From: an uncultured Methanosarcinales archaeon
Lineage (GTDB): Archaea; Nanobdellota; Nanobdellia; Woesearchaeales; GW2011-AR15
Assembly: GCA_964512765.1 (NCBI GenBank)
Contig: CAZEKF010000001.1
Coordinates: 66,366 to 130,365, forward strand
DNA length: 64,000 bases
Reading direction: 5' to 3'
Of this stretch, positions 1,472-54,315 are shown piece by piece (the stretch's first letter is position 1; each line of letters begins with the position of its first letter). The translations under genes were made by a program, and so were the position numbers. A model generated the notes under the pieces. The model was not told the origin of the DNA. It made no database searches and saw nothing but the letters and a program-made list of their open reading frames with translations.

Positions 1472-4330
1472 TTGGTTAAAGAAAAAACAGATGATGACAT
1501 TACACTTGACTTTTCATGGTTAAAAAATATACTTCCAAAAAAAACAGATACACAAGAAAGTACTGATGAAGATGTTACACTTGATTTGAGTAAAACATCA
1601 GGTTTTCTAAAAAAATATGCTGTGTTTTTCTTATTATTAATACCTATTATTTTATCGATTCATATTAGAACATTGCCAGCAAATTTGCCAATGGCAGATG
1701 ACTGGGCAAGACAAGGCATTTATACTAATATAAGAAACAATGTCGCTGCTCAGGTTAACCAGCAATACCCTCATTTACCGGACCAGACTAAACAAAGTAT
1801 GATTGATGAACAATTTGCGTTAGCGGTTTCTCAACAACAGGTACAAATTGAACAAGCAGTTGTTACGCAAGCAGAAGGGTTAAAGCAAAGGTTCAGAGAC
1901 GAATCTGGTGAGACTTATTTGGGAGATATAGACTCGTACTTTTGGACAAGGTATGCTAATAATTTAGTTGAAAAAGGAATATACGCAGACGAGTTTCGAG
2001 ATGGAGAACCGTATGATAACCATATGTCTGCCCCTAATGGTCTTAAAGTTGAACCCAACCTGTACCCCTATTTAGAGGCATATTTATATAAATTTTTAAG
2101 ATTGTTTAATCCAAAGGTAAGTATACTTAAAGCATCTTTTTTAACACCGTTATTTTTATCATTTTTTGCAATAATAGCTGCATTTTTCATCGGTAAAAAA
2201 CTATCAGGAGATTTAGCTGGATTCATCGCATCAATACTTATTGCAGTTAACCCGACAGTCTTAAGTAGGTCATTAGGATCTGATAATGACGTTGTAAACG
2301 CAGTGTTTCCTTTGTTAATAATGTTATTTACCATATACGCGTTTGACTCTAAAAATACTAACAAGACAATTATTTACGCAGCAATAACAGGACTGTTAAC
2401 CGGACTGTACAGTTTTGCATGGTCAGGATGGTGGTTCATGTTCTTGTTCATTATTGGTGCAGGAGTTATTTACATGGGCTATATAGGTGTTTATGAAACT
2501 ATTAGCAAAGGTAAAACAATTGACAATCTCTTGAGTAATAAAAAACTTAAATTGATTGTTGTGTTACTTAGTATATTTTTAGCATCGACTTTTATTTCAT
2601 TAACCATTTTTGGAAATAGTGGTTTGTTTTTAAGAGCATTGTACAGAAACCCTGTTAAGATTGTTACAATACAACAAGCAGCTCGAGGGATAAGTATATG
2701 GCCGAACGTTTACACTACAGTTGCTGAACTAAATGCAGCAAACTTCCCAACTATTGCCAGTAGTTTAGGTGGTAAAACATTTTTATGGTTAGCTTTAATA
2801 GGTACGATCCTTGCATTGGTTAATTTTGGTAGTGAAAGTAAAAAAACTTCAAGAATAAGTATGATCTTTTTGGCTGCTTCGGTACTGTATTATTTGATTT
2901 TTATTGAAATGTCATTAACAAACAATTTTAACATTATTGTTCAGATGGCATTATTATCGATACCTTTATTCGTTGGTTTGTTATTGTCTGCAATGTATAG
3001 TTACAAACTTGAACCAATACATTCAATTTTAATGGTTATCTGGTTCATGGCTACAATATACGCAGCTACAAAAGGTATTAGGTTTATTTTGTTGATCATC
3101 CCTGCGTTTGTTATTTCGTTTTCCACTTTAATTAATTCGTTAGTTGACTGGACAGCAAAGCTAACAAGTAAGTCTTTAGACCTGAACATATCCATACCAA
3201 AAGTAATTTTTACAGTAATTGCATTACTTTTACTTGTTCAACCAATCAGAGTAGGTAGAGCAACTGCTTATAGTTATGTGCCAAGTGTTAACGATGCCTG
3301 GGTTGAAACATTAACAAAAATAAAAACAGAGTCTGCACCAGATGCAATTGTTAATTCATGGTGGGACTTTGGTCATTGGTTCAAATATTGGGCAGATAGG
3401 CAAGTAACGTTTGACGGTGCTTCTCAGAATAGTCAACAAGCGCACTGGATTGGTAAAGTGTTACTTACTGATGATGAGGACCAAGCAGTTGCAATATTAA
3501 GAATGTTGGATTGTGGGGGCATAAAGGCTGAACAAAAATTAACTAAACTGACAGAAGACACATACGAAACAGTACAATTATTGTATAGTTTTTTTGAAAT
3601 GACTGAGTCAGAGGTTAAGACAGAACTATTAAAATTAACAGATCAAACAAAAGCAGACGAAATTGTTTCTTACATGTTTTGTGAACCTCCTGAAAATTAT
3701 TTTATAACTTCTGGTGACATGGTAGGTAAATCTGGTGTCTGGGCACATTTTGGAAGCTGGAACTTCCAGAGGGCAAAAATATACAGTTATTTTAAATCAA
3801 TGACCTTGACAGAGTTTTCACAAACTTTAACAACAGAATTTGGATATACTGAACAAGATGCGCAAAGAATTTTTTACGAACTAACATCACTAATAACAGA
3901 TAGGGAAATTAACAACTGGATAGCACCGTGGCCAAGCTACGGCGGAGTTATATCTTGTTCAAGAGATAATAGGACTCTGACGTGTAATGTTCCAGCAAAC
4001 AACCAGAATGTTCCAATGCAAATTAATCTTGATACAAAAGAAGCGTCTGTTGAATCTAATAATGACCAAACCTTCCATCCTTACAAGTTCGCATACCTCG
4101 ATGATAACAATGAACTGATAACTAAAACATATAATGAAAACCATCTAGGATACGGACTTGTGTTGTTAGGAGAGTCAAGTGTTTTGTTCATGGCGCCAGA
4201 GTTGACAGGTAGCATGTTTACAAGGATGTTTTACTTAGATGGCCGTGGTTTAAATTATTTTAATAAGTTTCACGATACAAGAGATATAGCAGGCAGCAGG
4301 ATAATTACTTGGAAACTTGACTGGCAGTAA
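1472..4330 (+). CDS. aglB: Archaeal oligosaccharyltransferase AglB (STT3 homolog)
   Basis: 952 aa. N-terminal polytopic domain plus a large C-terminal domain. WWDFGHW (WWDYG) catalytic motif. A TTG start is preceded by a GGGGGT Shine-Dalgarno-like site. Confidence 0.85.
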   Translation: MVKEKTDDDITLDFSWLKNILPKKTDTQESTDEDVTLDLSKTSGFLKKYAVFFLLLIPIILSIHIRTLPANLPMADDWARQGIYTNIRNNVAAQVNQQYPHLPDQTKQSMIDEQFALAVSQQQVQIEQAVVTQAEGLKQRFRDESGETYLGDIDSYFWTRYANNLVEKGIYADEFRDGEPYDNHMSAPNGLKVEPNLYPYLEAYLYKFLRLFNPKVSILKASFLTPLFLSFFAIIAAFFIGKKLSGDLAGFIASILIAVNPTVLSRSLGSDNDVVNAVFPLLIMLFTIYAFDSKNTNKTIIYAAITGLLTGLYSFAWSGWWFMFLFIIGAGVIYMGYIGVYETISKGKTIDNLLSNKKLKLIVVLLSIFLASTFISLTIFGNSGLFLRALYRNPVKIVTIQQAARGISIWPNVYTTVAELNAANFPTIASSLGGKTFLWLALIGTILALVNFGSESKKTSRISMIFLAASVLYYLIFIEMSLTNNFNIIVQMALLSIPLFVGLLLSAMYSYKLEPIHSILMVIWFMATIYAATKGIRFILLIIPAFVISFSTLINSLVDWTAKLTSKSLDLNISIPKVIFTVIALLLLVQPIRVGRATAYSYVPSVNDAWVETLTKIKTESAPDAIVNSWWDFGHWFKYWADRQVTFDGASQNSQQAHWIGKVLLTDDEDQAVAILRMLDCGGIKAEQKLTKLTEDTYETVQLLYSFFEMTESEVKTELLKLTDQTKADEIVSYMFCEPPENYFITSGDMVGKSGVWAHFGSWNFQRAKIYSYFKSMTLTEFSQTLTTEFGYTEQDAQRIFYELTSLITDREINNWIAPWPSYGGVISCSRDNRTLTCNVPANNQNVPMQINLDTKEASVESNNDQTFHPYKFAYLDDNNELITKTYNENHLGYGLVLLGESSVLFMAPELTGSMFTRMFYLDGRGLNYFNKFHDTRDIAGSRIITWKLDWQ

Positions 4331-36110: not shown

Positions 36111-37271
36111 TTAAATTAATAATCTCTTATCTTTATTTGATAACCATTTATTAGTTTTTATTTTTAAATTACCTCTTTTATATCTAGGTATGAATTTATA
36201 AAAATTTATTAATATATCTTTTAATGATTGTTTTGAGAGTGCTCCTCTACACTTTAATAATAATTTAAGTTGGTTTTCATGTCTTTTTAATTCAAAACCA
36301 ATTTTCGAGTAGAATGTCATTAAGTCCTTAAGTCTAGTAATTAAGATAGTGTATGTAGCAGTTATTTTTCCAAGAGAACTAACATATACTTTTGAAAAAT
36401 AAGGTTGAACAATGATACCAAAACTTTTTAGTATTTGCACTTCGTTTTTAGTCAATTCAGGTACATTTGAATTAAGACTACTTAAGCAATGTTTATCTAA
36501 ATCCTGTTTATAATATACTTTTCTCATTTTCTTATGTTTAAGACCAATTTTGACTGAATTATTTCTATTCAATTGTATTCTAGGACTAAGATAATATTTG
36601 TTTTTAACTTTTGTGACAAAGGCATAAATTGATGCTTCTTCACTTATGTTTGCTTGCCACCATATCTTATGGAATTGTTTATTATTTAAAATGTAATTAG
36701 GAATCTTTAAATCTGCACTGTTTTTATTTCCATAAATCCTATTTTTTATAAAATGCTTTGCAAATATAAGTGGGAAATATAAACATCTTGTTTGGTCTCT
36801 CGTATCAATTCTTTCTTTTAGCGTAATATTTCCTATTAACTTTTTTGAATTTACTCTTATAATGTCCAATATTTCATGGTCTTTATTTGTATATTCAACA
36901 ATTCTATGTCTTATTCGTCCTTCGTTAATCATTCCAACAAATAATCTTACACCAGCATTACAATTAAAATTCAAAGGCAATTTTGGATCTTTGATTTCAT
37001 CAATAAATTTGATGCCTTTTGTTATTTTAGAAATTGAAAAATTACAGAAATTTCCAATTCTTTGAAATGTTAAAGACTTGATATATTTTTGATTGATAAA
37101 TTTTTTCCAGGTTCTTAACTCTATACCTATATTTTTCGAGATAGGAGTATTTAAACTTGATTTTGTTTTTACTTTTGCTATTTTGATTACATATTTGATA
37201 TAATTTTTCTTAGCAATAATCTTAGAAAACGGACTATCTGAGATATTTACAATATTTTTTCCATTATTCAT
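36111..37271 (-). CDS. Paralog of 40392..41405: degenerate LAGLIDADG-like homing-endonuclease-type protein
   Basis: Shares the N-terminal KSSLN and NxNAG blocks and a C-terminal basic helical tail with 40392..41405. Shares the upstream GTCCAGTG repeats. Possible degenerate motif RLFVGMINEG. Confidence 0.3.
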   Translation of the reverse strand: MNNGKNIVNISDSPFSKIIAKKNYIKYVIKIAKVKTKSSLNTPISKNIGIELRTWKKFINQKYIKSLTFQRIGNFCNFSISKITKGIKFIDEIKDPKLPLNFNCNAGVRLFVGMINEGRIRHRIVEYTNKDHEILDIIRVNSKKLIGNITLKERIDTRDQTRCLYFPLIFAKHFIKNRIYGNKNSADLKIPNYILNNKQFHKIWWQANISEEASIYAFVTKVKNKYYLSPRIQLNRNNSVKIGLKHKKMRKVYYKQDLDKHCLSSLNSNVPELTKNEVQILKSFGIIVQPYFSKVYVSSLGKITATYTILITRLKDLMTFYSKIGFELKRHENQLKLLLKCRGALSKQSLKDILINFYKFIPRYKRGNLKIKTNKWLSNKDKRLLI

Positions 37272-37879: not shown

Positions 37880-38932
37880 ATGGTCGTTACTGAAGAATCT
37901 ATTAACTTAAACATTGTAAAAGAAAAAAAAATTTCTAAAAAACTCCCAGTATTTTACAATCCAATCATGAAACTTAACAGAGATATTTCTGTTTTGCTAC
38001 TTAATTCTATTCCAGACAAAAACATGCAAATAGCACTTCCATTAGCAGGGTCAGGTGTTCGTGGGATAAGGTTTCTTAAAGAACTTAGTAAAAATAAAAT
38101 TAAATCAATTGCATTTAATGATTATAAAACTTTATCAGACATTAAGAAAAACCTTAAATTAAATAATTTAGAAAAAGATAAAAGGATAAAGTTGTATAAC
38201 GCAGATGCTAACTTATTCTTGTTACAAAGTAAAGGTTTTGATTATATTGATATTGATCCTTTTGGTACTCCAAATCCTTTTTTAGAAAATTCTATTACGA
38301 GGTTGGCTAGAAAAGGGATTTTGGCAGTAACAGCCACAGACACAGCAGCGTTAGCAGGAAGTTCGGAAAAGGCATGCATAAGAAAATACTGGGCTAAACC
38401 TATGAGAAACGAGTTAATGCATGAAATTGGTATTAGAATATTGATCAGGAAAGTGCAGTTGATAGGTGCTCAGAATGATAAAGCACTAACACCAATATTT
38501 AGTTATTCAAAAGACCATTATTACAGGTTATTTTTCAGGTGCGAGAAAGGAAAACAAAAAGTTGATTCATTGTTAAAAAACCACAAATATTTGTTGTATA
38601 ATCCAAAAACAATGAAAAGAGAAGTTTCTGAGCATAACTATAAGAAAAATTATCAATACACAGGACCTTTGTGGGCAGAACAATTATGGGACAAGAAATT
38701 AGTTAGCAAAATGTATAAGAATTGTGATAAAAGTAATAAAAAACTGAGTGATTTGGTTTCAATTATTAAAGAAGAATGTAAAATTGGTACTGTTGGATTC
38801 TATGATTTACATAAAATAGCTAAATTAAAAGGTAAAGAAGTTCCAAAAATTGAAACCATATTGAATAAAAATACAACTAGAACACATTTCCTGGGCTGGG
38901 GGGTTAGGACCCAGCTTCAAAAATTGATTTAG
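37880..38932 (+). CDS. trm1: tRNA (guanine26-N2)-dimethyltransferase Trm1
   Basis: LPVFYNPIMKLNRDISV N-terminal Trm1 signature. SAM-MTase fold. 350 aa. Confidence 0.85.
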   Translation: MVVTEESINLNIVKEKKISKKLPVFYNPIMKLNRDISVLLLNSIPDKNMQIALPLAGSGVRGIRFLKELSKNKIKSIAFNDYKTLSDIKKNLKLNNLEKDKRIKLYNADANLFLLQSKGFDYIDIDPFGTPNPFLENSITRLARKGILAVTATDTAALAGSSEKACIRKYWAKPMRNELMHEIGIRILIRKVQLIGAQNDKALTPIFSYSKDHYYRLFFRCEKGKQKVDSLLKNHKYLLYNPKTMKREVSEHNYKKNYQYTGPLWAEQLWDKKLVSKMYKNCDKSNKKLSDLVSIIKEECKIGTVGFYDLHKIAKLKGKEVPKIETILNKNTTRTHFLGWGVRTQLQKLI

Positions 38933-39695
38933 TCCAACCACCAAAGAATTCTTGACCATTTAGTTTCCAGTTATTAACAGGAGAGTCAATGTGTAAATTT
39001 TCAGGAGGGCGTACATCTGTCCGTCCTTTATTTTTGTCTCTTATATATTCTTCCACAAGCCTGGTTGTATGATATTCAGGATGACCTAAATTGATTAAAA
39101 ATTTTTTATCACAACTTTCAAAAATATAATAGCCCGCATCCTGTGAATAAGCCAATAGGTTAATTATGCCTTTATTGCTTGTTTGTTCAAGAAGATTATC
39201 ATTTATTCCAGCATGTCTACTATGTGGACAATAAAATTCATCATCCAAATCTCTCATAATAATGTGTTTTGAATCAAGTTTGGTTGTTTTATAAATACCG
39301 AATAATTTTTTTTTAAACATAGTCTTTTTTATGTCAAGCAATTTTGCCAAAGCAAGGCCGCCCCAGCAAAGTCCTAAAGTTGAAGCATAATTTTTTCTTG
39401 CATAACCAAGTATTTTTTTTAGCTCTTCCCAATATGTGATTTTTTCAAACGGAATTTCTTCAACAGGAGCAGGTGAAAGTATGAGTCCTTGTAGTTTATC
39501 TTTAACATCTTCAAAATACTTGTAGCATTTTTTTAAATGCTCTTTATTACTGCTTGAATAACAATGATTCTTTAATCTGATAAATACAAGTGTAACTTTG
39601 AGTGAGGATTTGTTTAAAGGTACTAGTAAGTTATGTTCATATTCCTCAGCTTTCGGCATTAAATTAATTATGCCAATTTTTATTTCGTTAGTCAT
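38904..39695 (-). CDS. metA: Homoserine O-acyltransferase (MetA/HTS family)
   Basis: IINLMPK, GLILSPAPVE, CWGG, PHSRHAG and GHPEY blocks match MetA. Confidence 0.8.
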   Translation of the reverse strand: MTNEIKIGIINLMPKAEEYEHNLLVPLNKSSLKVTLVFIRLKNHCYSSSNKEHLKKCYKYFEDVKDKLQGLILSPAPVEEIPFEKITYWEELKKILGYARKNYASTLGLCWGGLALAKLLDIKKTMFKKKLFGIYKTTKLDSKHIIMRDLDDEFYCPHSRHAGINDNLLEQTSNKGIINLLAYSQDAGYYIFESCDKKFLINLGHPEYHTTRLVEEYIRDKNKGRTDVRPPENLHIDSPVNNWKLNGQEFFGGWTKSIFEAGS

Positions 39696-39900
39696 TGTGA
39701 TTTTTTTAATGCATGATTTATATCTTTAATAATGTCTTTTGAATGTTCAATCCCTATTGACAATCTAATTAATTCAGGTTTTATTCCACCAAATATCAAG
39801 TGTTCTTCAGTTAACTGACTGTGTGTTGTTGGATCTGGCCTTTGGCCAGCGTGTACAAATTTTGTTTGAATATCTAATTTTTTATTTTTTTAGTAGACAT
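39692..39900 (-). pseudogene. metY: Remnant of O-acetylhomoserine sulfhydrylase/cystathionine gamma-synthase (MetY/MetB family): frameshift plus large in-frame internal deletion
   Basis: Translation gives MSTKKIKN*, then (after a frameshift in an A-run) TKFVHAGQRPDPTTHSQLTEE (Cys/Met-metabolism PLP-enzyme N-terminus) fused directly to GGIKPELIRLSIGIEHSKDIIKDINHALKK (family C-terminus). Its TGA stop overlaps the metA ATG (ATGA). Confidence 0.5.
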
Positions 39901-40063
39901 ATTAATCACCTTTAATATTTTTTAAAGAAATTAAGAAAATCACTGAATGCTTCAACACATCATTAACATTTTAGAATTTATTAAACAGTAATTAAGCATT
40001 TTTACCTAGAAATCCCTTAATGATTTATAAAATATTTTGAAAAAATAATTCTAATAAGAATAA

Positions 40064-40391: not shown

Positions 40392-41405
40392 TTATTGGTC
40401 TAAATATGATTCCAGTTTTTTTCTTTTGTAATCCATCAGTTTAATATGTTTATTAAATAATTTTAAGTTTGGTTTTGAAGTTATTCGGATAATATATTTA
40501 GAACATTTACCATATCTGTTCATATATGTGTTTGTTAAATAAGGACCTTGAACTTTAATACCCAACTTGTTTAGAAGTAGCTTGTCGATTTCCAGAATGC
40601 CTGAAGGAGCAGGAGTACCATTCTTTATTAAGGATGCTTGTTCTAATGTTATCTCCCTTTTTCCAACACATCCATCGTCATTGAAAGCTTTTGCAAGAAA
40701 CTCAGAAATTAATTCTTTGTCATCAATTTTTTCTAGGAAACTGAATGGTTGAAAATGGATTTTTATTTTGTATCCAGGAGTATAACCTATGGAGATCATT
40801 ATCTCACCTACTATGGTTGGCAAAGTTATGCGATAGATACCTTTTTTGTCTTTTTTAATTTCTCTTTTAAATTTCCCAAATAATATTTGAGAGTCACTAA
40901 GAAATTCCGAACATTCAGGTTTTGATTTATTTACATATCTAGGTTGTTTGTTGTCTTTTCCAATGCAACCGTCATGATAAAGATGACTTAAAAATCTCAT
41001 ACCTTCTTTTGTATTGAAACTTATGGGAAAAACAGGATAATATATTTTTTGTGAATGAGAACCACCACTTTTTATATAATATATGTTTTTTTCTAAATTC
41101 AATAATGTGAAAGTACCACATCCCGCATTTACCAAAAGATTCGATATCTTCTGAAGATTTGATAATGAAAAAGGGACTCTTGTGAATTGATCCCAAAGTT
41201 GAGTAAAACTAATATTAGAAATCCGAGACAAGTTTGTTATTGTCTCAAAGGTGTTAAGTGCACTTTTAAATATTATTTTTTTAAGTGGAGGTTTGAACTC
41301 AACATAAATGGATTCCGTATTGTTCAAATTTAAGGAGCTTTTCAAATCTCTTAAATGATATGTTCCCTTTTTTGTTGATCTTTTACTCTTTTTTCCAAAT
41401 TTCAT
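40392..41405 (-). mobile_element. Free-standing double-motif LAGLIDADG-type homing endonuclease gene (putative)
   Basis: Two LAGLIDADG-like motifs (LSHLYHDGCIGKD and LAKAFNDDGCVGKRE) about 100 aa apart. Basic C-terminal tail. Inserted between a Zn-ribbon gene and EF-1beta. Confidence 0.5.
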
Positions 41406-45091: not shown

Positions 45092-46738
45092 ATGACGAAA
45101 AAGAAAAGATTAATGGATGATGCAGATCTTGATCAGTTTGTTAGAGACTGTATTCTTATATGGTATAATCGAACTGATGCACAGCCAATAACCGAAGAAC
45201 AGTCAAAAAAAATTTACAGAACAATTGGTGATATGGTTAACGCACACGAATTAGTCGCAGAGGTTTTTGAAGCTACGCAAGACATAATTCCTTTAATTGT
45301 TTATGATGAAGTACGCGTTTTAAGAAAAGAAATTGATCAGTATGATTCTCTTCTTTATGTTTTACATGGTAATTTTGATTATAGAGATGCACATCTAAGA
45401 CACGGAGATTCTTTGTTGGCTGTTTTAGCACAACACGTAGACTTGGCTACACCATACGAAACATGGAGACAACAACAAAACTTTTCTAAAGTTGATAATG
45501 TCACTGAACAACCTCAACAAGCACAAGCATTTGAAGTTGAACCAGGAGAAGAACATCACCACGTAGTACAACAATCTGTCCGAGATGAAATTCCGGTAAA
45601 TGCATCAGCAAGAGTTGAGGATATGCGTCTTGACGGTCATGCTTTACAAATACCAGGGACAGGAGTAACAGTTGCCACTCAGCTTGACCAACATCAAATT
45701 ATTGTTTCAGGAACAGCACCTAATAATTTTGTTATTCATCTACCAGGAGATCTTGGTGATAAATTACAAGACGGGTTACTTATAGTTGATACAATCGATA
45801 GGTTTTCACCTGAAATACGTCGTTTTGATTTTTTTTCAAGAGCTGAGCGAATTGCAGCTGGGCATGAAAAAGGGATAGCTACAAACTTATATCCGTCAGG
45901 ACAAGGAGCTAGTGCAACAATTACTTTTCAACAACCAGCAAACTATTTGTTAGTGCCTTTAGATGGAGATGGTGCATTAACTTGTGAACGAGGGAGATTC
46001 AAAGGATATATTGGGACATATAATTTGCGAAGATTTGAAAGAAATTTTAATATTTCTAATTTTCTTTTGGCAAACTTTAATTTTATTGTCAGTAAGTTAT
46101 CTGATCAGCCATTATTATTTGGACCTGTTCAAAAAGTGAATGTTAATGGTCAAGGATACGCAATAATTCAAGCATCTAAGGGAACTCAGACAGTTACCAT
46201 GCCTCCCCATGATGAACAAGATTTAGAATCGCCTGTTATTGCATACAAAAATGTTTTTTTCAAAGATAAAGGGTTGCCTTATAAAATTGGCATGGAAGTA
46301 ATTACTGCAGGAGGGTTAGCATCATTAGCTCTTATTTTTGGTGATAAAGCACCAGAAATAGGTAAAATGATTGGAGGATTTGCTGCAGGGTATTATGCTA
46401 CATCTGCAACGGTTGGCAAACGTACTTTTAAAAACACTTTAGTTAGTATTGTTACTGGTGTTGCTTGTGCAGCAACTACACAAATTAATTACGAACCAGT
46501 ACAAGAAGTTGTTCAAAATATTGTTGAACCTGTTTATGCGGGATTAGACGGATTATTTCTTGGGAGAATTCTATATGGAACAATATTTAATCCTATTAGG
46601 ATTAAAAACTGGGGAGAAAGAATATTTAGAATGTTATACTTGAGCAAAACCAATAATGCATTGACACAACCAGTAGCCTATACTAAAGAGAAAGTTGGTC
46701 ATGTTATAGAAGGAAGAATTGGTAGAGCTAGGGAATAA
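45092..46738 (+). CDS. Hypothetical protein with a C-terminal glycine-zipper membrane region (548 aa)
   Basis: About 400-aa soluble N-terminal region, then GxxxG-rich helices (VITAGGLASLALIFG, IGGFAAGYYATSA). Composition shift relative to the core genome. Confidence 0.3.
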   Translation: MTKKKRLMDDADLDQFVRDCILIWYNRTDAQPITEEQSKKIYRTIGDMVNAHELVAEVFEATQDIIPLIVYDEVRVLRKEIDQYDSLLYVLHGNFDYRDAHLRHGDSLLAVLAQHVDLATPYETWRQQQNFSKVDNVTEQPQQAQAFEVEPGEEHHHVVQQSVRDEIPVNASARVEDMRLDGHALQIPGTGVTVATQLDQHQIIVSGTAPNNFVIHLPGDLGDKLQDGLLIVDTIDRFSPEIRRFDFFSRAERIAAGHEKGIATNLYPSGQGASATITFQQPANYLLVPLDGDGALTCERGRFKGYIGTYNLRRFERNFNISNFLLANFNFIVSKLSDQPLLFGPVQKVNVNGQGYAIIQASKGTQTVTMPPHDEQDLESPVIAYKNVFFKDKGLPYKIGMEVITAGGLASLALIFGDKAPEIGKMIGGFAAGYYATSATVGKRTFKNTLVSIVTGVACAATTQINYEPVQEVVQNIVEPVYAGLDGLFLGRILYGTIFNPIRIKNWGERIFRMLYLSKTNNALTQPVAYTKEKVGHVIEGRIGRARE

Positions 46739-48110
46739 CCTCTTCGTAATAATCTGTTATTTTGAATGAATCAATAATTGTTGTGTTGTTTCCACTCACT
46801 TGATGAGCATTACCTATCAACGCGTTTTCATGCACGTCTATAGTTACAAAGTGATAAATACCGCATTTTGCATATTTTTGTAAAAAATTTATGCTTTGCT
46901 CATGATGACGTATTCCCCAACTACAGTCTTTTAATGGACCTCCTCCTCCGCCTGTTACAATAGTATGAATGAAGGTATTTGGAAAGATAAAAGTTTGTTC
47001 AGCACCGTTTTCGGGTTTAGTTTTATGCCCATCGTCAGGAACAGCATACCTTTCATATGAATGTAAATGACCTGAAAACACCATTGTTACATCATATTCT
47101 CTGAATAAATCTTCATAAAGATTACTTACTTTGGTAGTTTTACTCTCACCCATAGTAGCTGTATAAAACGGCATGTGCATGTATACAATAATGTTTTCTA
47201 TACCCTCCATTGATCGTGCTTGTTGAAGATGATTTTTTACCCAACCAACAGGTGTATTTCTCCAATATTCGTTTCCTTGTTCAAATGAAATAAAATATGT
47301 GTTTTTGTATCTAAAAGCATAGTTTGTTCCGTACTGAAGATCGCTTGGCGAACCAGATTCATGTGTGTTTGAAGGAGGGAACAACTTAAAATTATCTCCA
47401 AGTCCAGGGTTGCTTAGAAGAGAACTAAGAAATGACCTATATTGAAGAATTCCGTCTTGTGCTTGGTCATGGTTTCCGCTTGTTGGGAAGAAAGGTATAC
47501 CGTTTAGTTTATTTGTGAAACACTGGTTAAATCTACTGTAAGCACCGCCTGACCATCCCCAGTCCATTAAATCACCAGTATGAATTACTAAATTTGGGTT
47601 AGTCTGTGCTAACAAAGAGGGTAAACTTGATCTTTCAGCACCGCCGCATGAGTTTGTTGCATACTGTGTATCTCCAACAACGCCAAATCTAAACAAAAAT
47701 TCACCGTCTAATGATTCTGCGACTAATTTGTCCACAGGATTTCCTACCCACAACTCTAGTTTTTTTGAAGCTTCTGGTGTAGGTGTTGTCATTTGCGTAG
47801 ATGTCAATAAAATTTCTTGCGTTGGTGTCATAACATCTGTCGTTGGTGTATATACTTGAGTAGGATTTAATAGAACTTCTAAAGTAGGTGTTGTTGTAAT
47901 ATCAGATGAAACCACAGTGCCTAATGTGAAATCTGTTGAAAAAGCAATTGGGCTTGGAGTGACATAAACTTGTGCTTGGTTCTGTGATACAGATGTTGAA
48001 GAAGTTACTGTGCCATAGACCCAGCCAACAGTTACAGCACCGCCTAACAGTACAAGAGATCTTACTAAACCATTTTTCTTTTTCCTACGCCTACGTCTTC
48101 TTCTTGTCAT
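46728..48110 (-). CDS. Arg-tail signal-anchored surface protein with a calcineurin-like metallophosphatase domain; C-terminal ...EEVIP tag
   Basis: MTRRRRRRRKKK plus TM. T/P-rich stalk. Metallophosphatase motifs GDTQY, GDLMD, GNHD, MHMP, GHLHSYER. Ends DYYEEVIP. Confidence 0.7.
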   Translation of the reverse strand: MTRRRRRRRKKKNGLVRSLVLLGGAVTVGWVYGTVTSSTSVSQNQAQVYVTPSPIAFSTDFTLGTVVSSDITTTPTLEVLLNPTQVYTPTTDVMTPTQEILLTSTQMTTPTPEASKKLELWVGNPVDKLVAESLDGEFLFRFGVVGDTQYATNSCGGAERSSLPSLLAQTNPNLVIHTGDLMDWGWSGGAYSRFNQCFTNKLNGIPFFPTSGNHDQAQDGILQYRSFLSSLLSNPGLGDNFKLFPPSNTHESGSPSDLQYGTNYAFRYKNTYFISFEQGNEYWRNTPVGWVKNHLQQARSMEGIENIIVYMHMPFYTATMGESKTTKVSNLYEDLFREYDVTMVFSGHLHSYERYAVPDDGHKTKPENGAEQTFIFPNTFIHTIVTGGGGGPLKDCSWGIRHHEQSINFLQKYAKCGIYHFVTIDVHENALIGNAHQVSGNNTTIIDSFKITDYYEEVIP

Positions 48111-48116
48111 TTTTAT

Positions 48117-49469
48117 TTAAGGTATAGCTTCATCAGGATCATACTCTTCCACATTTGAAGCAACATGAACATCAGATTGTAACCTTGCAACCCAGATTTC
48201 GCTGTTTGATTTTTTCAAAGAATAACTGTGCTGCTGGTCTATCTTACCATATAGTAACCATAGTTCTTGGTTCATTCTATATATTTGATTTGCAGAATAA
48301 TGTTGGAAATTACCTTCTCCATTAAGAACCCACTTACCTGTTCTGTTCCAATTAATACCGTCACTGCTATACGTCCATTCTAAATGAACATTACCTTCAG
48401 CATGAACACGATCAACGCCTTCTCTAATGTTACGTAATTCTGGTTCATAAATCCAAAGAACACCTAAATATCCATTCTGAACTTGTGTAACTGCCATACC
48501 ATAGAAATGCGTGTCTTTTCCTTCTTTATCAATCTCACTTTGGTTTGGCACAAGCACTAGCTGTGGTTCAGACCAATTAATAAAATCATCAGATACAACT
48601 CTAGCAACAGTTCTTATTCTTACACCTTCAATATTTTCTTGTCTTTTAACATATCCAACATATTTATTTAACCTGAAATCATAGAAAAAGTTAGCAACAT
48701 CGCTCCAATTTGTATATGGGCCACCTATTTGATTAAAATCAATACCATTTGTAGATTCATATGCCATAAATCCGTTGTCTCGTTTATATACCATTAATTT
48801 CATGGTCTTTGTACCATCATAAACAACAGACGTCATGTTAGAATTTTCAAATAAAATCCGTTCGTTACTCCACTCATTACCATTACCACTTTCTACAACT
48901 CTAATGCTTGACCCAGAACCCGATGCTTTATCCCAATGAGTGAAATAAAGAAAATAGTTGTCACGATTTTCTCCTTTTGGTAAAATTCCACCATACACAT
49001 ACTCGATACCTTCAAACCTGTTTCCTTCTGTAAAAAGTATAGAATTATCTATAACTCTAACACTGTTAATCCAAGAAGCCAAATCAAACTCAAGATTACA
49101 TAAATATTCAGGAGGGCATAAAGATGCTTCTATTGTATTTTCAAGTGTAGGTGTTAAGGTTACAATTGGTGTTGAAGTTAACAACACTTTTGGTGAAGGA
49201 GTAAGTATAACCGGTTGAGTAGGATCAGACACAATAGTACCATCTGCAAAAGGTTCAGAAAAAGTAGGAATTGTCTGGTTGTTGTCAGAATGTTCTTTTG
49301 GATTATAAGGTAAGATAGCAGCTATTTGGTCAAATATTGGTTCGTTAAAATCAATCTGGCTTATTACATAACCTGTGTATAAAGAAGCTCCTCCTATTAA
49401 AGCAACTGTTCCAATAGTTTTAAGGAAATTTCCTTTTCTTTTCCTTCTTCTACGTCTTCGTCTTGCCAT
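48117..49469 (-). CDS. Arg-tail signal-anchored surface protein with a beta-propeller glycoside-hydrolase-like domain; C-terminal ...DEAIP tag
   Basis: MARRRRRRRKRK plus TM. T/P stalk. W/Y/G-rich repeated blocks typical of GH32/43/130-type propellers (the fold assignment is tentative). Ends EEYDPDEAIP. Confidence 0.4.
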   Translation of the reverse strand: MARRRRRRRKRKGNFLKTIGTVALIGGASLYTGYVISQIDFNEPIFDQIAAILPYNPKEHSDNNQTIPTFSEPFADGTIVSDPTQPVILTPSPKVLLTSTPIVTLTPTLENTIEASLCPPEYLCNLEFDLASWINSVRVIDNSILFTEGNRFEGIEYVYGGILPKGENRDNYFLYFTHWDKASGSGSSIRVVESGNGNEWSNERILFENSNMTSVVYDGTKTMKLMVYKRDNGFMAYESTNGIDFNQIGGPYTNWSDVANFFYDFRLNKYVGYVKRQENIEGVRIRTVARVVSDDFINWSEPQLVLVPNQSEIDKEGKDTHFYGMAVTQVQNGYLGVLWIYEPELRNIREGVDRVHAEGNVHLEWTYSSDGINWNRTGKWVLNGEGNFQHYSANQIYRMNQELWLLYGKIDQQHSYSLKKSNSEIWVARLQSDVHVASNVEEYDPDEAIP

Positions 49470-49475
49470 TTTTAT

Positions 49476-51134
49476 TTAAGGTATTATTTCTTCATAAAAT
49501 TCATTTCCTTCGAAAATTCTATCTCGAACAACATAATATGCTGCACTACACTCAACAGGTGAGTCTGTAATGCCTTCACCAACACAACCATATTCAGGTG
49601 TTTTAAATGGAGATTTTACAGCACCTGTTATAGAAGTAGAGAGCATAAAATCCTTAACAGCATTTGCAACAGCTTCATAACACCTAAAACTGTCAAAAGG
49701 GAACCCTTCCACAGCTTGGCAACTCATTAAATTGTTTGTTAACCAAGCAAGTTGGTCAAGACTTGTGTCATAATTAAGTGGTTCCTGAAAATTTAATACA
49801 TTTATCATATATCTAACATGCCACATATGACCTAACTCATGTGCAAAAACTTTTGTGAATATTTCTTGAGACACTGTATCTCTGTTTTTCATTATAATTT
49901 CATTATAGGAAACAACACCAGAGTCTGTTGTATTTTGAAAGCTTGTAACACCAGTGTCTGAACACGTCACAATTAACGGATCATTAAATAATACATAAGG
50001 TCCAACTCTTGTAACGAGTTCTTCTGCCCAAACAGGAATTTCTTGTCTACAGTTGTTAAAAGATACTAAACCAAATTCATATGTAGGGGCTTGTGCAACA
50101 ACTACAGTCGGAGTAGGTACAAGAGGTGTGTTAGTCAAAGTAGGGTTGAGAACACCAGTTGGCGTAGCTATCGCAACTTGACCACTACCTTGGTCAGGTT
50201 GAGAAATATCTACTTCAACAAACACACCTTTGTAATCAGGATATAAACTGCTAAGGTTTTCTAAACTAGTAGATTGTACACCACCTGCTGCAGTTGAATG
50301 AATAACAGTAACACCGTTATTAGTTGGGATCGCTATTCCAACATGCGAATATTCTCTTATGCCACCTTTATCATGGTTAAGTGTCCATAGATACATTTTA
50401 CCAATTTCCATATGATTACCAATATCATCCCATTTATCAGGGTCATAACCTTGGAACTCAGTAAATCCGTCTATTGGTTTAAATATCTGAGAATTTGGAT
50501 CAATAATGTATGCAATGTTAAGTGTCTGGTCCCAACCATATGCTTGCCTTAAAACTTCGTCATCTGCAGGTCGGTCTGTTCTTTGTTGAAATGCGTCGTC
50601 AAGTTTGATATTAACTCTACTAATTGCTCTGGCAGCTTGTAACTGATACCCTGCACAGTTGAATCCAATAACATTATCAATTGTTGGTGCACCACCTGTC
50701 CAATAAACAAACGAGCCATTATCATCAATAAAACCAAAGTTCTTGTAAGGCACGCCAATGTACTGACTTGCGTCATTTAAAGCCATTTGTGCAATTTCGT
50801 CAACACTTTTACTCGTCTGTGTAAAAAATAACGTTGGAGTTGGAGTTAACATTAAAGCATCAGGCGTAGGAGTTAATGCTACTGGTTGAGTAGGTCCAGG
50901 GATAAGTGTACCATTCATGAAACTTTCAGGAAAAATAGGAATTGCTTGATTATCATCAGATTGTTCTTTTGGGTTGTAAGGTAAGATAGCAGCTATTTGG
51001 TCGAATATTGGCTTGTCAAAATCTATCTGACTGATTAGATAACCACTGTATAAAGCTCCACCTATTAGAACCAAGTTTACACCAGTCCTAAGACAACCGC
51101 CTCCTCTCCTTCTTCTACGTCTTCGTCTTGCCAT
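49476..51134 (-). CDS. Arg-tail signal-anchored surface protein with NlpC/P60-like cysteine peptidase and HEXXH zinc-metallopeptidase domains; C-terminal ...EEIIP tag
   Basis: MARRRRRRRRGGG plus TM. NCAGY (Cys) and HVGIAIP...IHSTAAGG (His) of NlpC/P60. AHELGHMWH zincin motif. Ends NEFYEEIIP. Confidence 0.6.
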   Translation of the reverse strand: MARRRRRRRRGGGCLRTGVNLVLIGGALYSGYLISQIDFDKPIFDQIAAILPYNPKEQSDDNQAIPIFPESFMNGTLIPGPTQPVALTPTPDALMLTPTPTLFFTQTSKSVDEIAQMALNDASQYIGVPYKNFGFIDDNGSFVYWTGGAPTIDNVIGFNCAGYQLQAARAISRVNIKLDDAFQQRTDRPADDEVLRQAYGWDQTLNIAYIIDPNSQIFKPIDGFTEFQGYDPDKWDDIGNHMEIGKMYLWTLNHDKGGIREYSHVGIAIPTNNGVTVIHSTAAGGVQSTSLENLSSLYPDYKGVFVEVDISQPDQGSGQVAIATPTGVLNPTLTNTPLVPTPTVVVAQAPTYEFGLVSFNNCRQEIPVWAEELVTRVGPYVLFNDPLIVTCSDTGVTSFQNTTDSGVVSYNEIIMKNRDTVSQEIFTKVFAHELGHMWHVRYMINVLNFQEPLNYDTSLDQLAWLTNNLMSCQAVEGFPFDSFRCYEAVANAVKDFMLSTSITGAVKSPFKTPEYGCVGEGITDSPVECSAAYYVVRDRIFEGNEFYEEIIP

Positions 51135-51140
51135 TTTTAT

Positions 51141-52694
51141 TTAAGGTATTAATTCATCTGGTCCGTCATAATGAACTGTTGCAAAATTTACAACTGACCG
51201 ACCACTCCAAGTATATTCGTACAGCCTACCATTAAAATAAATCTGTTGCGATCCTCCAGCGTCCATGTTAATTGCAGAATGTGCACCAATGTTGTCCATT
51301 ATTTCTGCAGCATTGCACAAAGTCATTGGTTGAGTTATCATAACAAATAAGGTATTATCATTCACGCCAATCACTGTTCTTCCTCTTGAACCCCATTTAG
51401 GAGAATGACAATCTTGTTTAATGTCAGGATAAAAATCACCGCCGTAGTTGCTTCTATTAAACAAAGTATTGTTACCAGAAACAGCGTATAATATACCGTC
51501 GAAGTTACTGTTAATGTGCCTAATTGTTACTCTACCATTTTCATAAACTACTAATGAAGGCTCTCTAGGGTTTCCAGCATGGACATGATTACGATGTACA
51601 TACGGACCTTTAGGAACAGATGAACCAGAGTCCCATTGATCAGCATTAACAGTAAAAATTACATTATGGCTGTTAGCATATCCTTGCGCAGTATTTAACC
51701 CACCAGGTGCAGAAGATCCAACATTAATGTAAGGACTACACAAATCAAATTTAAACAAAGTATAATTGCCATTATTTTTAATTATTATAGGCTCATCCCT
51801 TGGTTTACAGTTATTTGGTCCTTGTGATTCTTCTGTTGGTCTAGGAGTATGTGTCAATGTAGGGACAGGAGTTGGTGTACTAATTAGATGTTTAATATCT
51901 ATATTACCTAAATCAGGTGAATAACTTTTAACTGCATCTTTTAGATGTTGGTAAGGATAACTGTTATTTGCAAAGCGCAACATTTCTTTTTCAGCTAGAT
52001 CGTAACTGTAGTTTTCGAACTCCACCCTATATATACCAACAATCATACCTGCTCTATGCGCACCATGCTGGCAATGAACATATACCGGTTGCATAGCAGG
52101 ATCTTTAATAATTGTCATAATCTCTAGAATATTTTTGTTAAAATCATGATGTGTAGGAGATTCTGCATTCATTGGATATTTATCAATGTAAATCATGCCT
52201 CTTTGTTCAACTAATGATCGTTCATTAGGCATTCCTTGAGACAAATCTATAACTGTTTTAAATCCTTGAGCTTGTAAATAATCAAAAGCAGCAGCAGAGT
52301 CTGGTTGAGCACCTGCAGCTAACACACCAGGATCAATCCATCTTAAATGAGTTACTGGTGAACCTTCAACTAAAGGAGGAATTTCTGCTTTAACAACAAT
52401 GTCAAGCGTAGTAGTTGGTTGAGGTGTAGGTGTATGGGTTGGCATCAATGTGGGCAGAGGAGTGTGAGTTAATGTTGCTAAAGTTTCTGGTGTTATGTAT
52501 GGGTCTGTTGGTGCGTACAGTACTGTTGCAGTAGTATCTAAGATTTGCTGAGCAGACATGTTATTAACATGAGCAGATGCATGGTCCCTTGTTTTAAAAT
52601 AAACAAATGACGCCGCTGTACCAAGAATAAATAATCCAAGAGGTATAACACAACTATTTCTACGATTCTTTCTTCTACGTCTCCTACGTGCCAT
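51141..52694 (-). CDS. Arg-tail signal-anchored surface protein with a CX5R (PTP/DSP-type) phosphatase domain and a phosphodiester-glycosidase (NAGPA-like) domain; C-terminal ...DELIP tag
   Basis: MARRRRRRKNRRN plus TM. VHCQHGAHRAG is an HCxxGxxR P-loop. C-terminal AINMDAGGSQQ resembles the NAGPA/DUF2233 motif. Ends YDGPDELIP. Confidence 0.6.
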   Translation of the reverse strand: MARRRRRRKNRRNSCVIPLGLFILGTAASFVYFKTRDHASAHVNNMSAQQILDTTATVLYAPTDPYITPETLATLTHTPLPTLMPTHTPTPQPTTTLDIVVKAEIPPLVEGSPVTHLRWIDPGVLAAGAQPDSAAAFDYLQAQGFKTVIDLSQGMPNERSLVEQRGMIYIDKYPMNAESPTHHDFNKNILEIMTIIKDPAMQPVYVHCQHGAHRAGMIVGIYRVEFENYSYDLAEKEMLRFANNSYPYQHLKDAVKSYSPDLGNIDIKHLISTPTPVPTLTHTPRPTEESQGPNNCKPRDEPIIIKNNGNYTLFKFDLCSPYINVGSSAPGGLNTAQGYANSHNVIFTVNADQWDSGSSVPKGPYVHRNHVHAGNPREPSLVVYENGRVTIRHINSNFDGILYAVSGNNTLFNRSNYGGDFYPDIKQDCHSPKWGSRGRTVIGVNDNTLFVMITQPMTLCNAAEIMDNIGAHSAINMDAGGSQQIYFNGRLYEYTWSGRSVVNFATVHYDGPDELIP

Positions 52695-52740
52695 GATGTT
52701 CTCATCGACCAGTAGTAAATAGTTATATTTAAAGATAGTG
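52650..52740 (-). repeat. Copy 1 of an approximately 90-bp duplicated segment covering the leaderless promoter (TATA-like TTTAAATATAACT) and the first approximately 14 codons of the Arg-tail gene
   Basis: A 45-mer CATGATGTTCTCATCGACCAGTAGTAAATAGTTATATTTAAAGAT at 52692..52736 is identical to 54313..54357. The flanks are near-identical. Confidence 0.7.
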
Positions 52741-52785
52741 GGTTTTCAATATGATTTTACTGTATAATTGAAGAAGAATTAGGTG

Positions 52786-54315
52786 CTATGGAATAGGTTC
52801 ATCATAATTATATTCATAAGCGGTTCTAAATGAGCTTGCAATATCTATACTGTTTCCAGAAATTAAAACTAATTTTCCACTATTTGACCCATTCATGGTT
52901 GGTATTGTTAAATTAACATTACCTTCTTCATTTGCTTGAATAACATCACCAGTAAAAACATTTGTTAATATTTCATAAGCTGGTAGTCCATTGAGCGTAT
53001 AATTTCTGGATTCTTGTGTTAAATTGACTAGGTAATACATTTGGGAGTCATTAGGCCCTTGCCTGACCATGTATGCAATACCATTTTGGTTTCCATATTC
53101 TGGATTTGATCCAGTTAACCAAGGCATTAACGCATGAAGTTCATGACCAATCTCACTAATAGTATTCCATAAAGATTCGTATAAACATGGTTTATTATAT
53201 TCACATTCTGGCCAATCCCATAAGGCAATACCATTAGCACCGCCAACAATTGCTTCGTCAATTCGTTGCCTAAGCATACCTCTTGATTGATTATAATTAA
53301 AATGTGCTGGTAAAACAACAAATGTAGAGTTTGAAATACCAGATTCTTTTTTACTTGATAACTGTCTTACTGAATTAAATGTTTTTCCAGTTCCTGAATA
53401 GTTATGATAAAAGTCAGCACCCCATATATCACCTAAGAGAGTATTAAATAATTGATCAGAAGAATAACCAAAATTAGGTTGATCCATTCTGTGATGTAAT
53501 ATTAATGTGTCGTGAACTGCATTGTTATGAATTTTTTTGTGGAGCCTTGTAACTTTTTCAGATATTAAGTTCCAATTTTTAATTAAATTAGGTTCATCTT
53601 TTCCATAGAACCATAACATTGAAGGATGATTATCTACAAAATTAATGAATTCAATTAGTTCTTCAGGTTTTTCGTCATATGTGTCAAATCGAGGAATCAT
53701 CATCATGCCAAATTCTCTGGCATGTTCAAAAATTTTGGGACCATATGGCTGCATAACAATTGTGTTAATACATGCATTAGACACTCTTTGCCACACATTC
53801 ATATTATGATTTATTTCAGCATCAGGCCCAAAGTCAGGATTATCAAATGCACCAGGAGGCCTAGGTAAATAATATATTCCAAATGGAAAAAAACCTGTTC
53901 CTTGTTGAGGGAGACCGTCACCAGTAATAATTATTGAACCTTGATTTTCATAATTTATTTGATTAGCACCATTTGCATACCAGGAAGGAACACATATAGT
54001 ATTATGTTGAACTAAATCTTGGAGATTTTGGACTTGAAGGGTGGGCGTTAGGGTAGGTAATGGTGTTGGTGTTGAAGTAGGTAATGGAGTATGAGTTAAA
54101 GTTGGTAATGTTTCAGAAGTCACAATTGTTTGAGTAGGTACAAAAAAAGCTTGTTGTGCAGGAGTCGCAACACTATTTTGTTGAACAGATGCTGCAATAT
54201 TTGGTATTACTTCTTCAAACATAAAATATGACACAGTAGTACCTAAAATAAATAATCCAAGAGGCACAACACAACTATTTCTACGTTTACTTCTTCTACG
54301 TCTCCTACGTGCCAT
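52786..54315 (-). CDS. Arg-tail signal-anchored surface protein with a TIM-barrel glycoside-hydrolase-like domain (tentative); C-terminal ...DEPIP tag
   Basis: MARRRRRRSKRRN plus TM. T/P stalk. WFYGKDEPN resembles the GH clan-A NEP acid/base strand. Ends YNYDEPIP. Confidence 0.35.
   Translation of the reverse strand: MARRRRRRSKRRNSCVVPLGLFILGTTVSYFMFEEVIPNIAASVQQNSVATPAQQAFFVPTQTIVTSETLPTLTHTPLPTSTPTPLPTLTPTLQVQNLQDLVQHNTICVPSWYANGANQINYENQGSIIITGDGLPQQGTGFFPFGIYYLPRPPGAFDNPDFGPDAEINHNMNVWQRVSNACINTIVMQPYGPKIFEHAREFGMMMIPRFDTYDEKPEELIEFINFVDNHPSMLWFYGKDEPNLIKNWNLISEKVTRLHKKIHNNAVHDTLILHHRMDQPNFGYSSDQLFNTLLGDIWGADFYHNYSGTGKTFNSVRQLSSKKESGISNSTFVVLPAHFNYNQSRGMLRQRIDEAIVGGANGIALWDWPECEYNKPCLYESLWNTISEIGHELHALMPWLTGSNPEYGNQNGIAYMVRQGPNDSQMYYLVNLTQESRNYTLNGLPAYEILTNVFTGDVIQANEEGNVNLTIPTMNGSNSGKLVLISGNSIDIASSFRTAYEYNYDEPIP

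Follow-up and report, generated by a model that had tools for sequence, protein, structure and literature searches.

Remnant of a decayed metY gene ahead of an intact metA in a DPANN-type archaeon and a candidate methionine-codon leader of the former operon

What is left of the methionine biosynthesis genes that lie between EF1beta and trm1 in a DPANN-type archaeon, and does the short reading frame in front of the metA gene still serve a purpose? The locus is part of a stretch of 64,000 nucleotides, hereafter called the window, that represents positions 66,366 to 130,365 of contig CAZEKF010000001.1 (assembly GCA_964512765.1). A comparison with the synteny of relatives defined the operon slot as EF1beta, metY remnant, metA and trm1, with the remnant and metA on the minus strand. 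In the direct sulfhydrylation pathway, the metA or metX product together with the metY product converts homoserine via O-acylhomoserine into homocysteine. Directly upstream of metA, 209 bases (39692..39900, minus strand) are what is left of metY, the gene encoding O-acetylhomoserine sulfhydrylase. The comparisons described in the following make it very probable that these bases are a dead remnant that was formerly the first gene of a metY-metA operon located between EF1beta and trm1. The related loci are designated by their contig numbers (L005 to L118), and the coordinates of all features are collected in Table 1.

The first-pass annotation of the window had noticed that both terminal blocks of the MetY/MetB family are encoded in a single minus-strand frame, and formal alignments with three resources agree with this assignment. 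The C-terminal block of 46 residues matched positions 336-381 of the 381 positions of PF01053 with an E value of 3.5e-10, which is above the curated gathering score of Pfam. It also matched the C-termini of solved MetY and methionine gamma-lyase chains of the PDB (7kb0 residues 380-428, approximately 49 residues, E 2.8e-11), and the N-terminal block of 18 residues aligned with residues 9-26 of methionine gamma-lyase among the same chains. The check that had been proposed along with the annotation, a TBLASTN search of the whole window with a full-length MetY, was performed with the closest intact relative P0121 (429 aa), which also served as the numbering reference for the lost codons. This search yielded only two high-scoring segment pairs, which are located in the same frame and abut each other: residues 2-29 of P0121 aligned with 39883..39800 (E 2e-4) and residues 382-428 with 39838..39698 (E 1e-16). 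Neither the TBLASTN search nor a Pfam survey detected a second metY or a second metA in the 64-kb window, which is the range covered by all searches for another MetY-like enzyme. The complete fold-type-I domain of about 380 residues is not present in the remnant, which comprises PF01053 positions of approximately 1-20 and 336-381 only.

In the remnant, about 21-26 N-terminal codons are fused in frame to 43 C-terminal codons, with the junction between PDPTT and HSQL. According to the P0121/L026 numbering, codon ~21-26 was joined to codon 387 by one deletion of 1095 bp, and the number of missing codons, previously estimated at about 350, amounts to 365 (P0121 residues 22-386). The deleted segment comprises the whole catalytic core, with the HSLTKW motif of P0121, an S-x-T-K motif that contains the cofactor-binding lysine in the family of pyridoxal phosphate (PLP)-dependent enzymes of Cys/Met metabolism. 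The N-terminal family consensus of the archaeal MetY relatives is HAGQxPDPTT-LARAVP and the C-terminal one HPASTT-HSQL, and the fusion is placed at the TT dipeptide that is common to both. Accordingly, the junction lies inside two similar in-phase repeats, CCAGATCCAACAACA and CCAGCTTCAACAACA, that code for PDPTT in the N-terminal and PASTT in the C-terminal part; the 3' parental site reads CCAGCTTCAACAACACAC in L026, and the repeat core CAACAACA is found at 39831..39824 of the window. The deletion may have arisen by slippage or recombination between these imperfect repeats. Since the repeats code for similar peptide motifs and hence share the same codon phase, the in-frame junction can be attributed to them and not to selection. 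A perfect GC-rich hairpin, CTGGCC-AAA-GGCCAG (39835..39849, minus strand), is located within the HAGQRPD codons and adjoins the junction. This hairpin, whose L026 counterpart is less well paired, may have promoted slippage.

A second lesion separates the remnant frame from its start. The combination of GGTGAT, a 4-nt spacer and ATG (39910..39898) recurs at the corresponding position of the intact L026 gene and thereby marks the original start of metY. An uninterrupted reading frame from this start codon is not retained, as a stop follows after codon 8. The frame halts 179 nt short of the ATGA overlap with metA, which can be reached only via an unproven TTG start at 39799 or by a frameshift. 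Insertion of one A into the A6 run creates a continuous 69-codon open reading frame (ORF), which confirms the frameshift in an A-run that the annotation had described, and the overlap of the remnant's TGA with the metA ATG was likewise found as described.

The history of the operon can be read from its relatives. A MetA-seeded survey classified 106 metA neighbourhoods, taken from genomes and metagenomes, and thus covers loci with metA but not the opposite case of a metY surviving without it. A metY gene directly upstream of metA is common in this collection, on AT-rich and GC-rich contigs alike. The nearest two MetA relatives are 87% (L007) and 77% (L026) identical to the window protein and belong to the same short form of 261 aa. 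The L026 locus is complete and shows the same synteny, with EF1beta, metY (429 aa), metA starting in an ATGA overlap, a 102-aa cupin gene, trm1, a 129-aa ORF and aIF5B/IF-2. The L007 contig, which is cut within metY, retains a minimum of 90 codons from the 3' end of metY and thus exceeds the window by 47. As the 87% sister lineage retains these codons and the 77% lineage the full gene of 429 codons, the deletion in the window appears to be recent and lineage-specific. An intact operon in the same synteny is also present in L012. In L107/L108 (GCA_018653265.1; MetA 58.5% identical), the genes for MTHFR, MetH (1131 aa), MetY and a full-length MetA are located between EF1beta and trm1. This fullest version of the island (metF-metH-metY-metA; L107 3324..10198) is the likely starting state. 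The cupin gene present in L026 and L005 is missing from the window at the metA/trm1 junction, and L007 is likewise devoid of it. Ordered by gene content, the loci form a series leading from metF-metH-metY-metA to metY-metA-cupin, to metY-metA and to remnant-metA, in which the window represents a late stage of piecemeal loss. The intact operons in the same synteny (L026, L107 and L012) and these stepwise states bear out the ongoing reductive evolution that the first-pass annotation had postulated.

Decay of metY beside a surviving metA has happened independently several times and is thus a recurrent, ordinary process. This view is based on remnants with a different junction in L008, L009 and L011, a further remnant in L096/L099 and losses in L010 and L104. 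The contigs L008, L009 and L011, which belong to a Nanoarchaeota metagenome-assembled genome (GCA_018815145.1), carry an uninterrupted 57-codon mini-metY, MTKDIDINTKLVHAGHVPDKETLSRAVPLYSTTSYVFWSTRHADDLIDDIKQALERK followed by a stop codon, that overlaps a full-length metA by ATGA. Its junction coincides with a DDL motif that is found at both parental sites. In L096/L099 (positions 1..290), a GC-rich (0.55) bacterial contig, metA is preceded by only about 30 C-terminal metY codons, which do not form an ORF starting from an ATG, and followed by a distant PF01053 paralog. The AT-rich loci L010 and L104 contain metA without metY. In a rough neighbour-joining tree, calculated without bootstraps, the remnant and loss states were interspersed with intact states.

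No observation that contradicts pseudogenisation of metY was made, and three observations could instead hint at a residual function of the stub: on the window branch, nonsynonymous changes in the C-terminal block are few (3.5, versus 8.5 synonymous ones), the deletion is in frame and left the ATGA overlap untouched, and L008 holds an independent, uninterrupted mini-metY that also ends in ATGA. All three are equally accounted for by a recent deletion in combination with in-phase repeats. If selection had nevertheless kept the stub for the sake of metA expression, it would act as a short upstream ORF that feeds ribosomes to the ATGA by termination-reinitiation and that, in the window, is read through the frameshift by -1 slippage on A_AAA_AAT. 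We regard this explanation as unlikely. ATGA coupling can be strict in an archaeon, as a premature stop in the upstream gene left the downstream gene untranslated in nine of nine overlapping pairs of Haloferax volcanii (PMC6728339). Moreover, metA has no Shine-Dalgarno (SD) sequence of its own in the window, L026 and L007, but this is uninformative on coupling since 48 of the 54 window ORFs are without one. The start and the overlapping stop are retained by two independent in-frame mini-metYs, and the low nonsynonymous count in the C-terminal block points in the same direction; however, both in-frame junctions are due to in-phase repeats (PDPTT/PASTT here, DDL/DDL in L008), no open mini-ORF exists in the third remnant (L096/L099), and metA lacks any upstream ORF in L010 and L104. 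The in-frame deletions were therefore rejected as a sign of selection for a coupling ORF. In Sulfolobus solfataricus, A-AAA-AAT has been proven to act as the -1 slippery site of fucA1, with programmed frameshifting at an efficiency of 5-10% (PMC1616953). However, the resemblance is not above chance as AAAAAAT occurs 107 times in the window, the nearest hairpin (39849..39835) follows 27 nt past the heptamer instead of 5-9 nt, and the remnant region shows no significant fold (z -0.9). Programmed -1 frameshifting at the zero-frame heptamer (39883..39877) was consequently set aside as a chance match without a stimulatory structure at 5-9 nt.

It is far less credible that the MetY-termini fusion of about 63-69 aa functions as an independent small protein. 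The in-frame fusion with its conserved C-terminal helix sequence and the analogous 57-aa ORF of L008 could be taken in its favour, but the frameshift after codon 8 is present in every copy of the window lineage, the segments kept are different (N 26 + C 43 here, N ~45 + C ~12 in L008), the fusion contains no PLP site, and none of the searches brought up a family of short proteins of this type. Equally hard to believe is that the deletion or the frameshift represents an assembly or sequencing artefact, caused for instance by repeat collapse or by a miscounted homopolymer, and that the real genome contains an intact metY. The junction in a short repeat and the frameshift in a homopolymer are indeed error-prone places. 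Nevertheless, the remnant sequence, including the A6 run, is base-for-base identical in contigs of four samples (two from JGI and two from ENA), and this identity of four independent metagenome assemblies argues against mis-assembly. Furthermore, an imperfect repeat of 15 nt cannot cause 1.1 kb to collapse in short-read assemblies whose flanks are consistent, and the genes on either side otherwise follow the order of L026. The same MetA is encoded on at least 23 contigs. An intact MetY (P0123) that was suspected to belong to the same genome, as its contig count and sources equal those of the window MetA, was assigned to another organism with a MetA of 296 aa. The Logan contig SRR2544004_31725 (L008 1..23) opens with an untrimmed Illumina adapter, CCTACACGACGCTCTTCCGATCT, in the public assembly.

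With metY most probably dead, the state of its partner gene becomes relevant. The metA gene is an intact ORF, as had been annotated, and its product matched PF04204 at positions 34-289 of 298 with 239.7 bits (cut-off 27; E 4.5e-71) and the solved structure 2ghr of Bacillus cereus MetA with an E value of 2.9e-44. The residues C110 (LCWGG), H205 and E207 (GHPEY) align with ICWGA and GHSEY of the B. cereus enzyme and are invariant in the family alignment; they constitute the Cys-His-Glu catalytic triad, which is thus retained. The sequence APVE of the window MetA occupies the presumed position of Glu111, which would mark acetyl specificity in B. cereus MetA. The protein is devoid of PF04204 positions 1-33, and a stop codon is located 11 codons upstream in the metA frame. 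This short form (261-263 aa) is confined to the clade of the window, L007 and L026, whereas other homologs comprise 291-323 aa. Since it is common to L026 and L007, both of which have metY, the N-terminal shortening predates the deletion and is not part of the decay; its coexistence with an intact metY in L026 suggests that the short MetA is probably active.

The metA gene as a whole is under strong purifying selection, with a ratio of nonsynonymous to synonymous substitution rates (dN/dS) of 0.108 in the comparison with L007 (dS 0.72). The branch counts were 15 synonymous to 8 nonsynonymous changes in the window and 24 to 6 in L007 (p 0.35), both far from neutral. The counts do not support relaxed selection on metA after the loss of metY, as the difference between the branches is not significant. 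The C-terminal block of the remnant also still looks constrained, and the deletion is therefore probably recent relative to the branch, too recent for an effect of the loss on metA to show. O-acylhomoserine would have no known use without MetY, unless another enzyme is encoded elsewhere in the genome, and metA may therefore be the next gene to go or may have a role that is independent of metY. Its transcription may persist from the retained operon promoter or from a new TATAAA that is located inside the remnant. This TATAAA is a weak, at most suggestive candidate (about p 0.05) for a new promoter of a leaderless metA mRNA.

The most interesting part of the locus lies upstream of the region covered by the first-pass annotation. 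About 170 nt preceding the metY start are conserved among five DPANN lineages, namely the window, L026, L107, L012 and L008. As this region is located between metH and metY in L107, the leader belongs to metY and travels with it. The first element of this region, from 5' to 3', is a TATTC-N6-GAATA block that is conserved in all five lineages in either orientation, with the same orientation in L107, L026 and the window and the reverse complement in L012 (approximately 2436..2452) and L008 (approximately 108..124). It resembles an operator for a dimeric regulator and is a candidate operator of the met promoter. A TTTAWA sequence was found 31-35 nt before the leader ATG in five of five lineages, with no other ATG in between, and the TATA-like box of the window would be the promoter of a leaderless operon transcript. 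SD matches of at least 5 nt were detected for only 6 of the 54 window ORFs, with metY and cdc48, each with AGGTGAT, among these exceptions. A TATA-like box at -39..-24 was present in 16 of the 34 window genes with an upstream gap, compared with 4-7% of internal coding positions. The scarcity of SD sequences and the TATA-like boxes before about half of the gap-preceded genes suggest that most mRNAs of the organism are probably leaderless.

Downstream of this putative promoter, all five lineages contain a short leader ORF of 15-27 codons with a tail rich in methionine codons, and the metY ATG with its SD sequence follows 44-52 nt past the leader stop. The N-terminal parts of the deduced peptides are unalignable, yet the frame is open in all five lineages (joint chance approximately 8e-4). 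Three to five of the last seven codons specify methionine, compared with a methionine frequency of 2.2% in the proteome. At least three methionines among the last seven residues were found in 3 of 1056 mini-ORFs of the window, the leader being one of the three, and in 1 of 861 mini-ORFs in 56 kb of related loci. Elsewhere in 735 kb of fetched sequence, the combined leader signature yielded one loose match only. The leader was not found at nine other metY upstream regions, including those of the metY-metX-metW type. The MetYs that are closest outside the clade (L113, L114 and L116) are encoded in metY-metX-metW operons with upstream gaps of 199-638 nt and no Met-rich leader; L114 additionally has homoserine dehydrogenase, MTHFR and MetH genes nearby. 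Two contigs considered as further leader-bearing lineages were rejected, L117 being cut inside metY and L118 representing an unrelated bacterial context. A 36-codon ORF of L012 (2263..2373), situated some 350 nt upstream of metY and immediately ahead of the conserved promoter block, starts with GTG and seven ATG codons; it could be a second Met-rich ORF or the run could just be a simple repeat of a trinucleotide.

The methionine codons overlap with a potential RNA hairpin, whose 5' arm is formed, depending on the lineage, by the final AUG AUG codons of the leader ORF, by its stop codon or by both. The calculated energies were -9.1 kcal/mol for L107, -8.8 for L012, -8.0 for L008 and -7.0 for L026 (shuffle p 0.004-0.037), compared with -2.5 kcal/mol for the window (shuffle p 0.26). 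The window hairpin is weak because three C-G pairs became U.G. Among the five sequences, which represent two hairpin architectures, the inner stems vary but still pair (GAUGC/GCAUC, GGGCU/AGCUC and CGCUGAA/UUCAGUG), and the shared NUGA/UCAN helix is closed by an A-U, G.U, C-G or U.G pair. The U-rich tract behind the hairpin could provide a terminator-like context; archaeal termination does not require a hairpin. No Rfam family of riboswitches or leaders matched the metY leader of the window or of its relatives, and inspection revealed no alternative pairing of the antiterminator type. The idea that the ATGATG...CTGA motifs are kink-turn or C/D boxes was examined by hand and rejected as the boxes are off consensus.

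Taken together, the arrangement of promoter, methionine codons, hairpin and U-rich tract makes it possible, at somewhat less than an even chance, that the leader is a ribosome-mediated attenuator sensing methionine or sulfur amino acids, the decay of which in the window goes along with the loss of its main target. In such a mechanism, a ribosome stalled on the Met codons would keep the hairpin open, so that metY and metA would be expressed. The window copy is a decaying example of this candidate attenuator.

Table 1. Positions of the features at the metY-metA locus; coordinates refer to the window unless a contig is named
Feature	Position	Strand	Remarks
Conserved metY leader region	39924..40062; L107 7828..8003; L026 98..258; L012 2455..2617; L008 125..308	minus (window)	
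Palindrome-like block TATTCTTATTAGAATT (TATTC-N6-GAATA)	40047..40062	minus	2 nt past the EF1beta stop; about 20 nt upstream of the leader TATA box
TATA-like box TTTATAAA	40024..40031	minus	32 nt upstream of the leader ORF ATG
Leader ORF, 15 codons	39952..39999	minus	MLNYCLINSKMLMMC, then stop; Met/Cys-rich tail MLMMC; homologous ORFs in four other lineages
Leader peptide of L107			MTQQYNKKIWCNSFKLDCMMCMMMR, then stop; tail MMCMMMR
Leader peptide of L012			MHIRTRQKFWHMAYSMMCVMMH, then stop; tail MMCVMMH
Leader peptide of L008			MPHHTLFKKCSSKLVQSMMCSMMHMMG, then stop; tail MMCSMMHMMG
Leader peptide of L026			MIHNRLVKNIYSNLKSMIFMMR, then stop; tail MIFMMR
Degenerate hairpin	39939..39963	minus	5' arm: final AUG AUG codons of the leader ORF plus its UGA stop; 3' arm: conserved UCAGUGAU
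U-rich tract TTTTCTTAATTTCTTT after the hairpin	39924..39939	minus	In all five lineages, TCAKTGRT is conserved and followed by a T-rich run
SD-like GGTGAT of the former metY	39905..39910	minus	Motif and 4-nt spacing to ATG are the same in L026
Original metY ATG (39900..39898) and cut frame MSTKKIKN with TAG (39876..39874)	39874..39900	minus	8 codons
A6 run	39878..39883	minus	One A lost from A7; with the following T reads A_AAA_AAT right before TAG
metY remnant reading frame	39692..39883	minus	63 codons and TGA; reads KKLDIQTKFVHAGQRPDPTTHSQLTEEHLIFGGIKPELIRLSIGIEHSKDIIKDINHALKKSQ, then stop; N-block up to PDPTT, C-block from HSQL to the native stop
Deletion junction CCAGATCCAACAACACAC (P-D-P-T-T-H)	39821..39838	minus	Crossover within in-phase direct repeats
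TATAAA inside the remnant	39717..39722	minus	27 nt upstream of the metA ATG; window-specific synonymous ATT to ATA; L007 and L026 have GATATTAAT
ATGA stop/start overlap	39692..39695	minus	Remnant TGA with metA ATG; same overlap in L026, L007, L107 and L008
metA, homoserine O-acyltransferase (HTS family)	38904..39695	minus	263 aa; intact ORF, short N-terminus
metA (minus)/trm1 (plus) 3'-end overlap	38904..38932	both	29 bp; site of the missing cupin gene
Mini-metY of L008	L008 306..479 (= L009/L011 206..379)		N ~45 aa + C ~12 aa

The remainder of the window provides no further part of the pathway. The Pfam survey, which covered about 50 ORFs, revealed archaeal housekeeping genes but neither metH, MTHFR and cupin genes nor any other gene of Met/Cys metabolism in the window. 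The convergence of metA and trm1 spans a GC-rich palindrome, GCTGGGGGGTTAGGACCCAGC (38895..38932), which is unusual in a genome with 32% GC. Two free-standing LAGLIDADG-like ORFs are located on either side of the locus (36111..37271 and 40392..41405, both on the minus strand) and are absent from the syntenic loci L026 and L107. The ORF at 40392..41405 is split into two ORFs in contig L001, with window positions 41015-41055 unaligned, which suggests that the element is polymorphic in the population. Additionally, large paralogous ORFs (450-552 aa) are arranged in tandem on the minus strand, three at 46728..51134 and two at 51141..54315, and each of the two arrays shares identical upstream sequences, ATACCTTAAATAAAA and ACTACTGGTCGATGAGAACATC. 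Most of these ORFs are without a Pfam match; one contains phosphatase and NAGPA domains and another a metallophosphatase domain.

With respect to gene loss, the locus is an ordinary but unusually well documented case, and it offers a clean and datable example of pathway shedding in small-genome archaea, with every intermediate state represented among the relatives. The repeat mechanism explains how deletions can look designed when they are not. The locus also raises the question why metA outlasts metY, a pattern that was seen in at least three archaeal-type lineages of the MetA-seeded survey. If the candidate attenuator is real, we believe that no leader-peptide attenuator has been described before it in Archaea and none that is built on methionine codons, and sensing of the amino-acid supply by ribosomes, in the style of bacteria, would then exist in Archaea in a compact element of about 150 nt. 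Neither an archaeal leader-peptide attenuator nor a methionine-codon leader was found in the literature, as far as covered by a limited library, which is not proof of novelty.

Several elements of the locus have counterparts in known systems. Pseudogenes generated by deletion between short direct repeats occur in reducing genomes, for instance in those of obligate symbionts and pathogens. As in these genomes, a pathway gene was hit by a repeat-flanked internal deletion and a homopolymer frameshift, the neighbouring pathway genes were lost stepwise, and the remnant is still recognisable by homology; the locus differs in its DPANN-type host, in intermediate states that can be read from relatives and in the in-phase repeats at both protein ends. 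With the direct-sulfhydrylation module it shares the metY-metA order and the ATGA overlap that are found in the relatives and in many metagenomic contigs, whereas metY is destroyed here and MetA is without its first approximately 33 profile residues, a feature of the clade of the window, L007 and L026 only. The -1 frameshift site of fucA1 is matched by the identical zero-frame heptamer at 39883..39877, and a -1 shift would bring the metY start back into frame with the remnant; in contrast to fucA1, a stimulatory structure at the usual distance is missing, the heptamer is common, and the product would be a catalytically dead peptide of 69 aa.

Leader-peptide attenuators of the trp, his, leu, thr and phe operons are known in bacteria and are also outlined in bioRxiv 10.1101/834739. 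The metY leader is similar to these classical attenuators in that a short ORF with codons for the end product is followed by a predicted hairpin and a U-rich tract before the biosynthetic genes, and differs from them in that no antiterminator pairing was identified and no Rfam leader matched. The closest described system is found in mycobacteria, in which leaderless polycysteine short ORFs serve as attenuators that respond to cysteine and ribosomes stalled in the Cys tract block an inhibitory RNA duplex (Canestrari et al., bioRxiv 10.1101/834739). The leader described here differs in being a candidate proposed from sequence data of an archaeon, in the use of Met codons (along with Cys) and in the partner strand, which is a conserved UCAK element with a U-tract and not the SD sequence of the next gene. 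Common to both systems are a first, apparently leaderless short ORF and codons for the end product at its 3' end, and here, too, the codon run would be part of an RNA duplex, so that a ribosome stalled on the Met codons would prevent the pairing.

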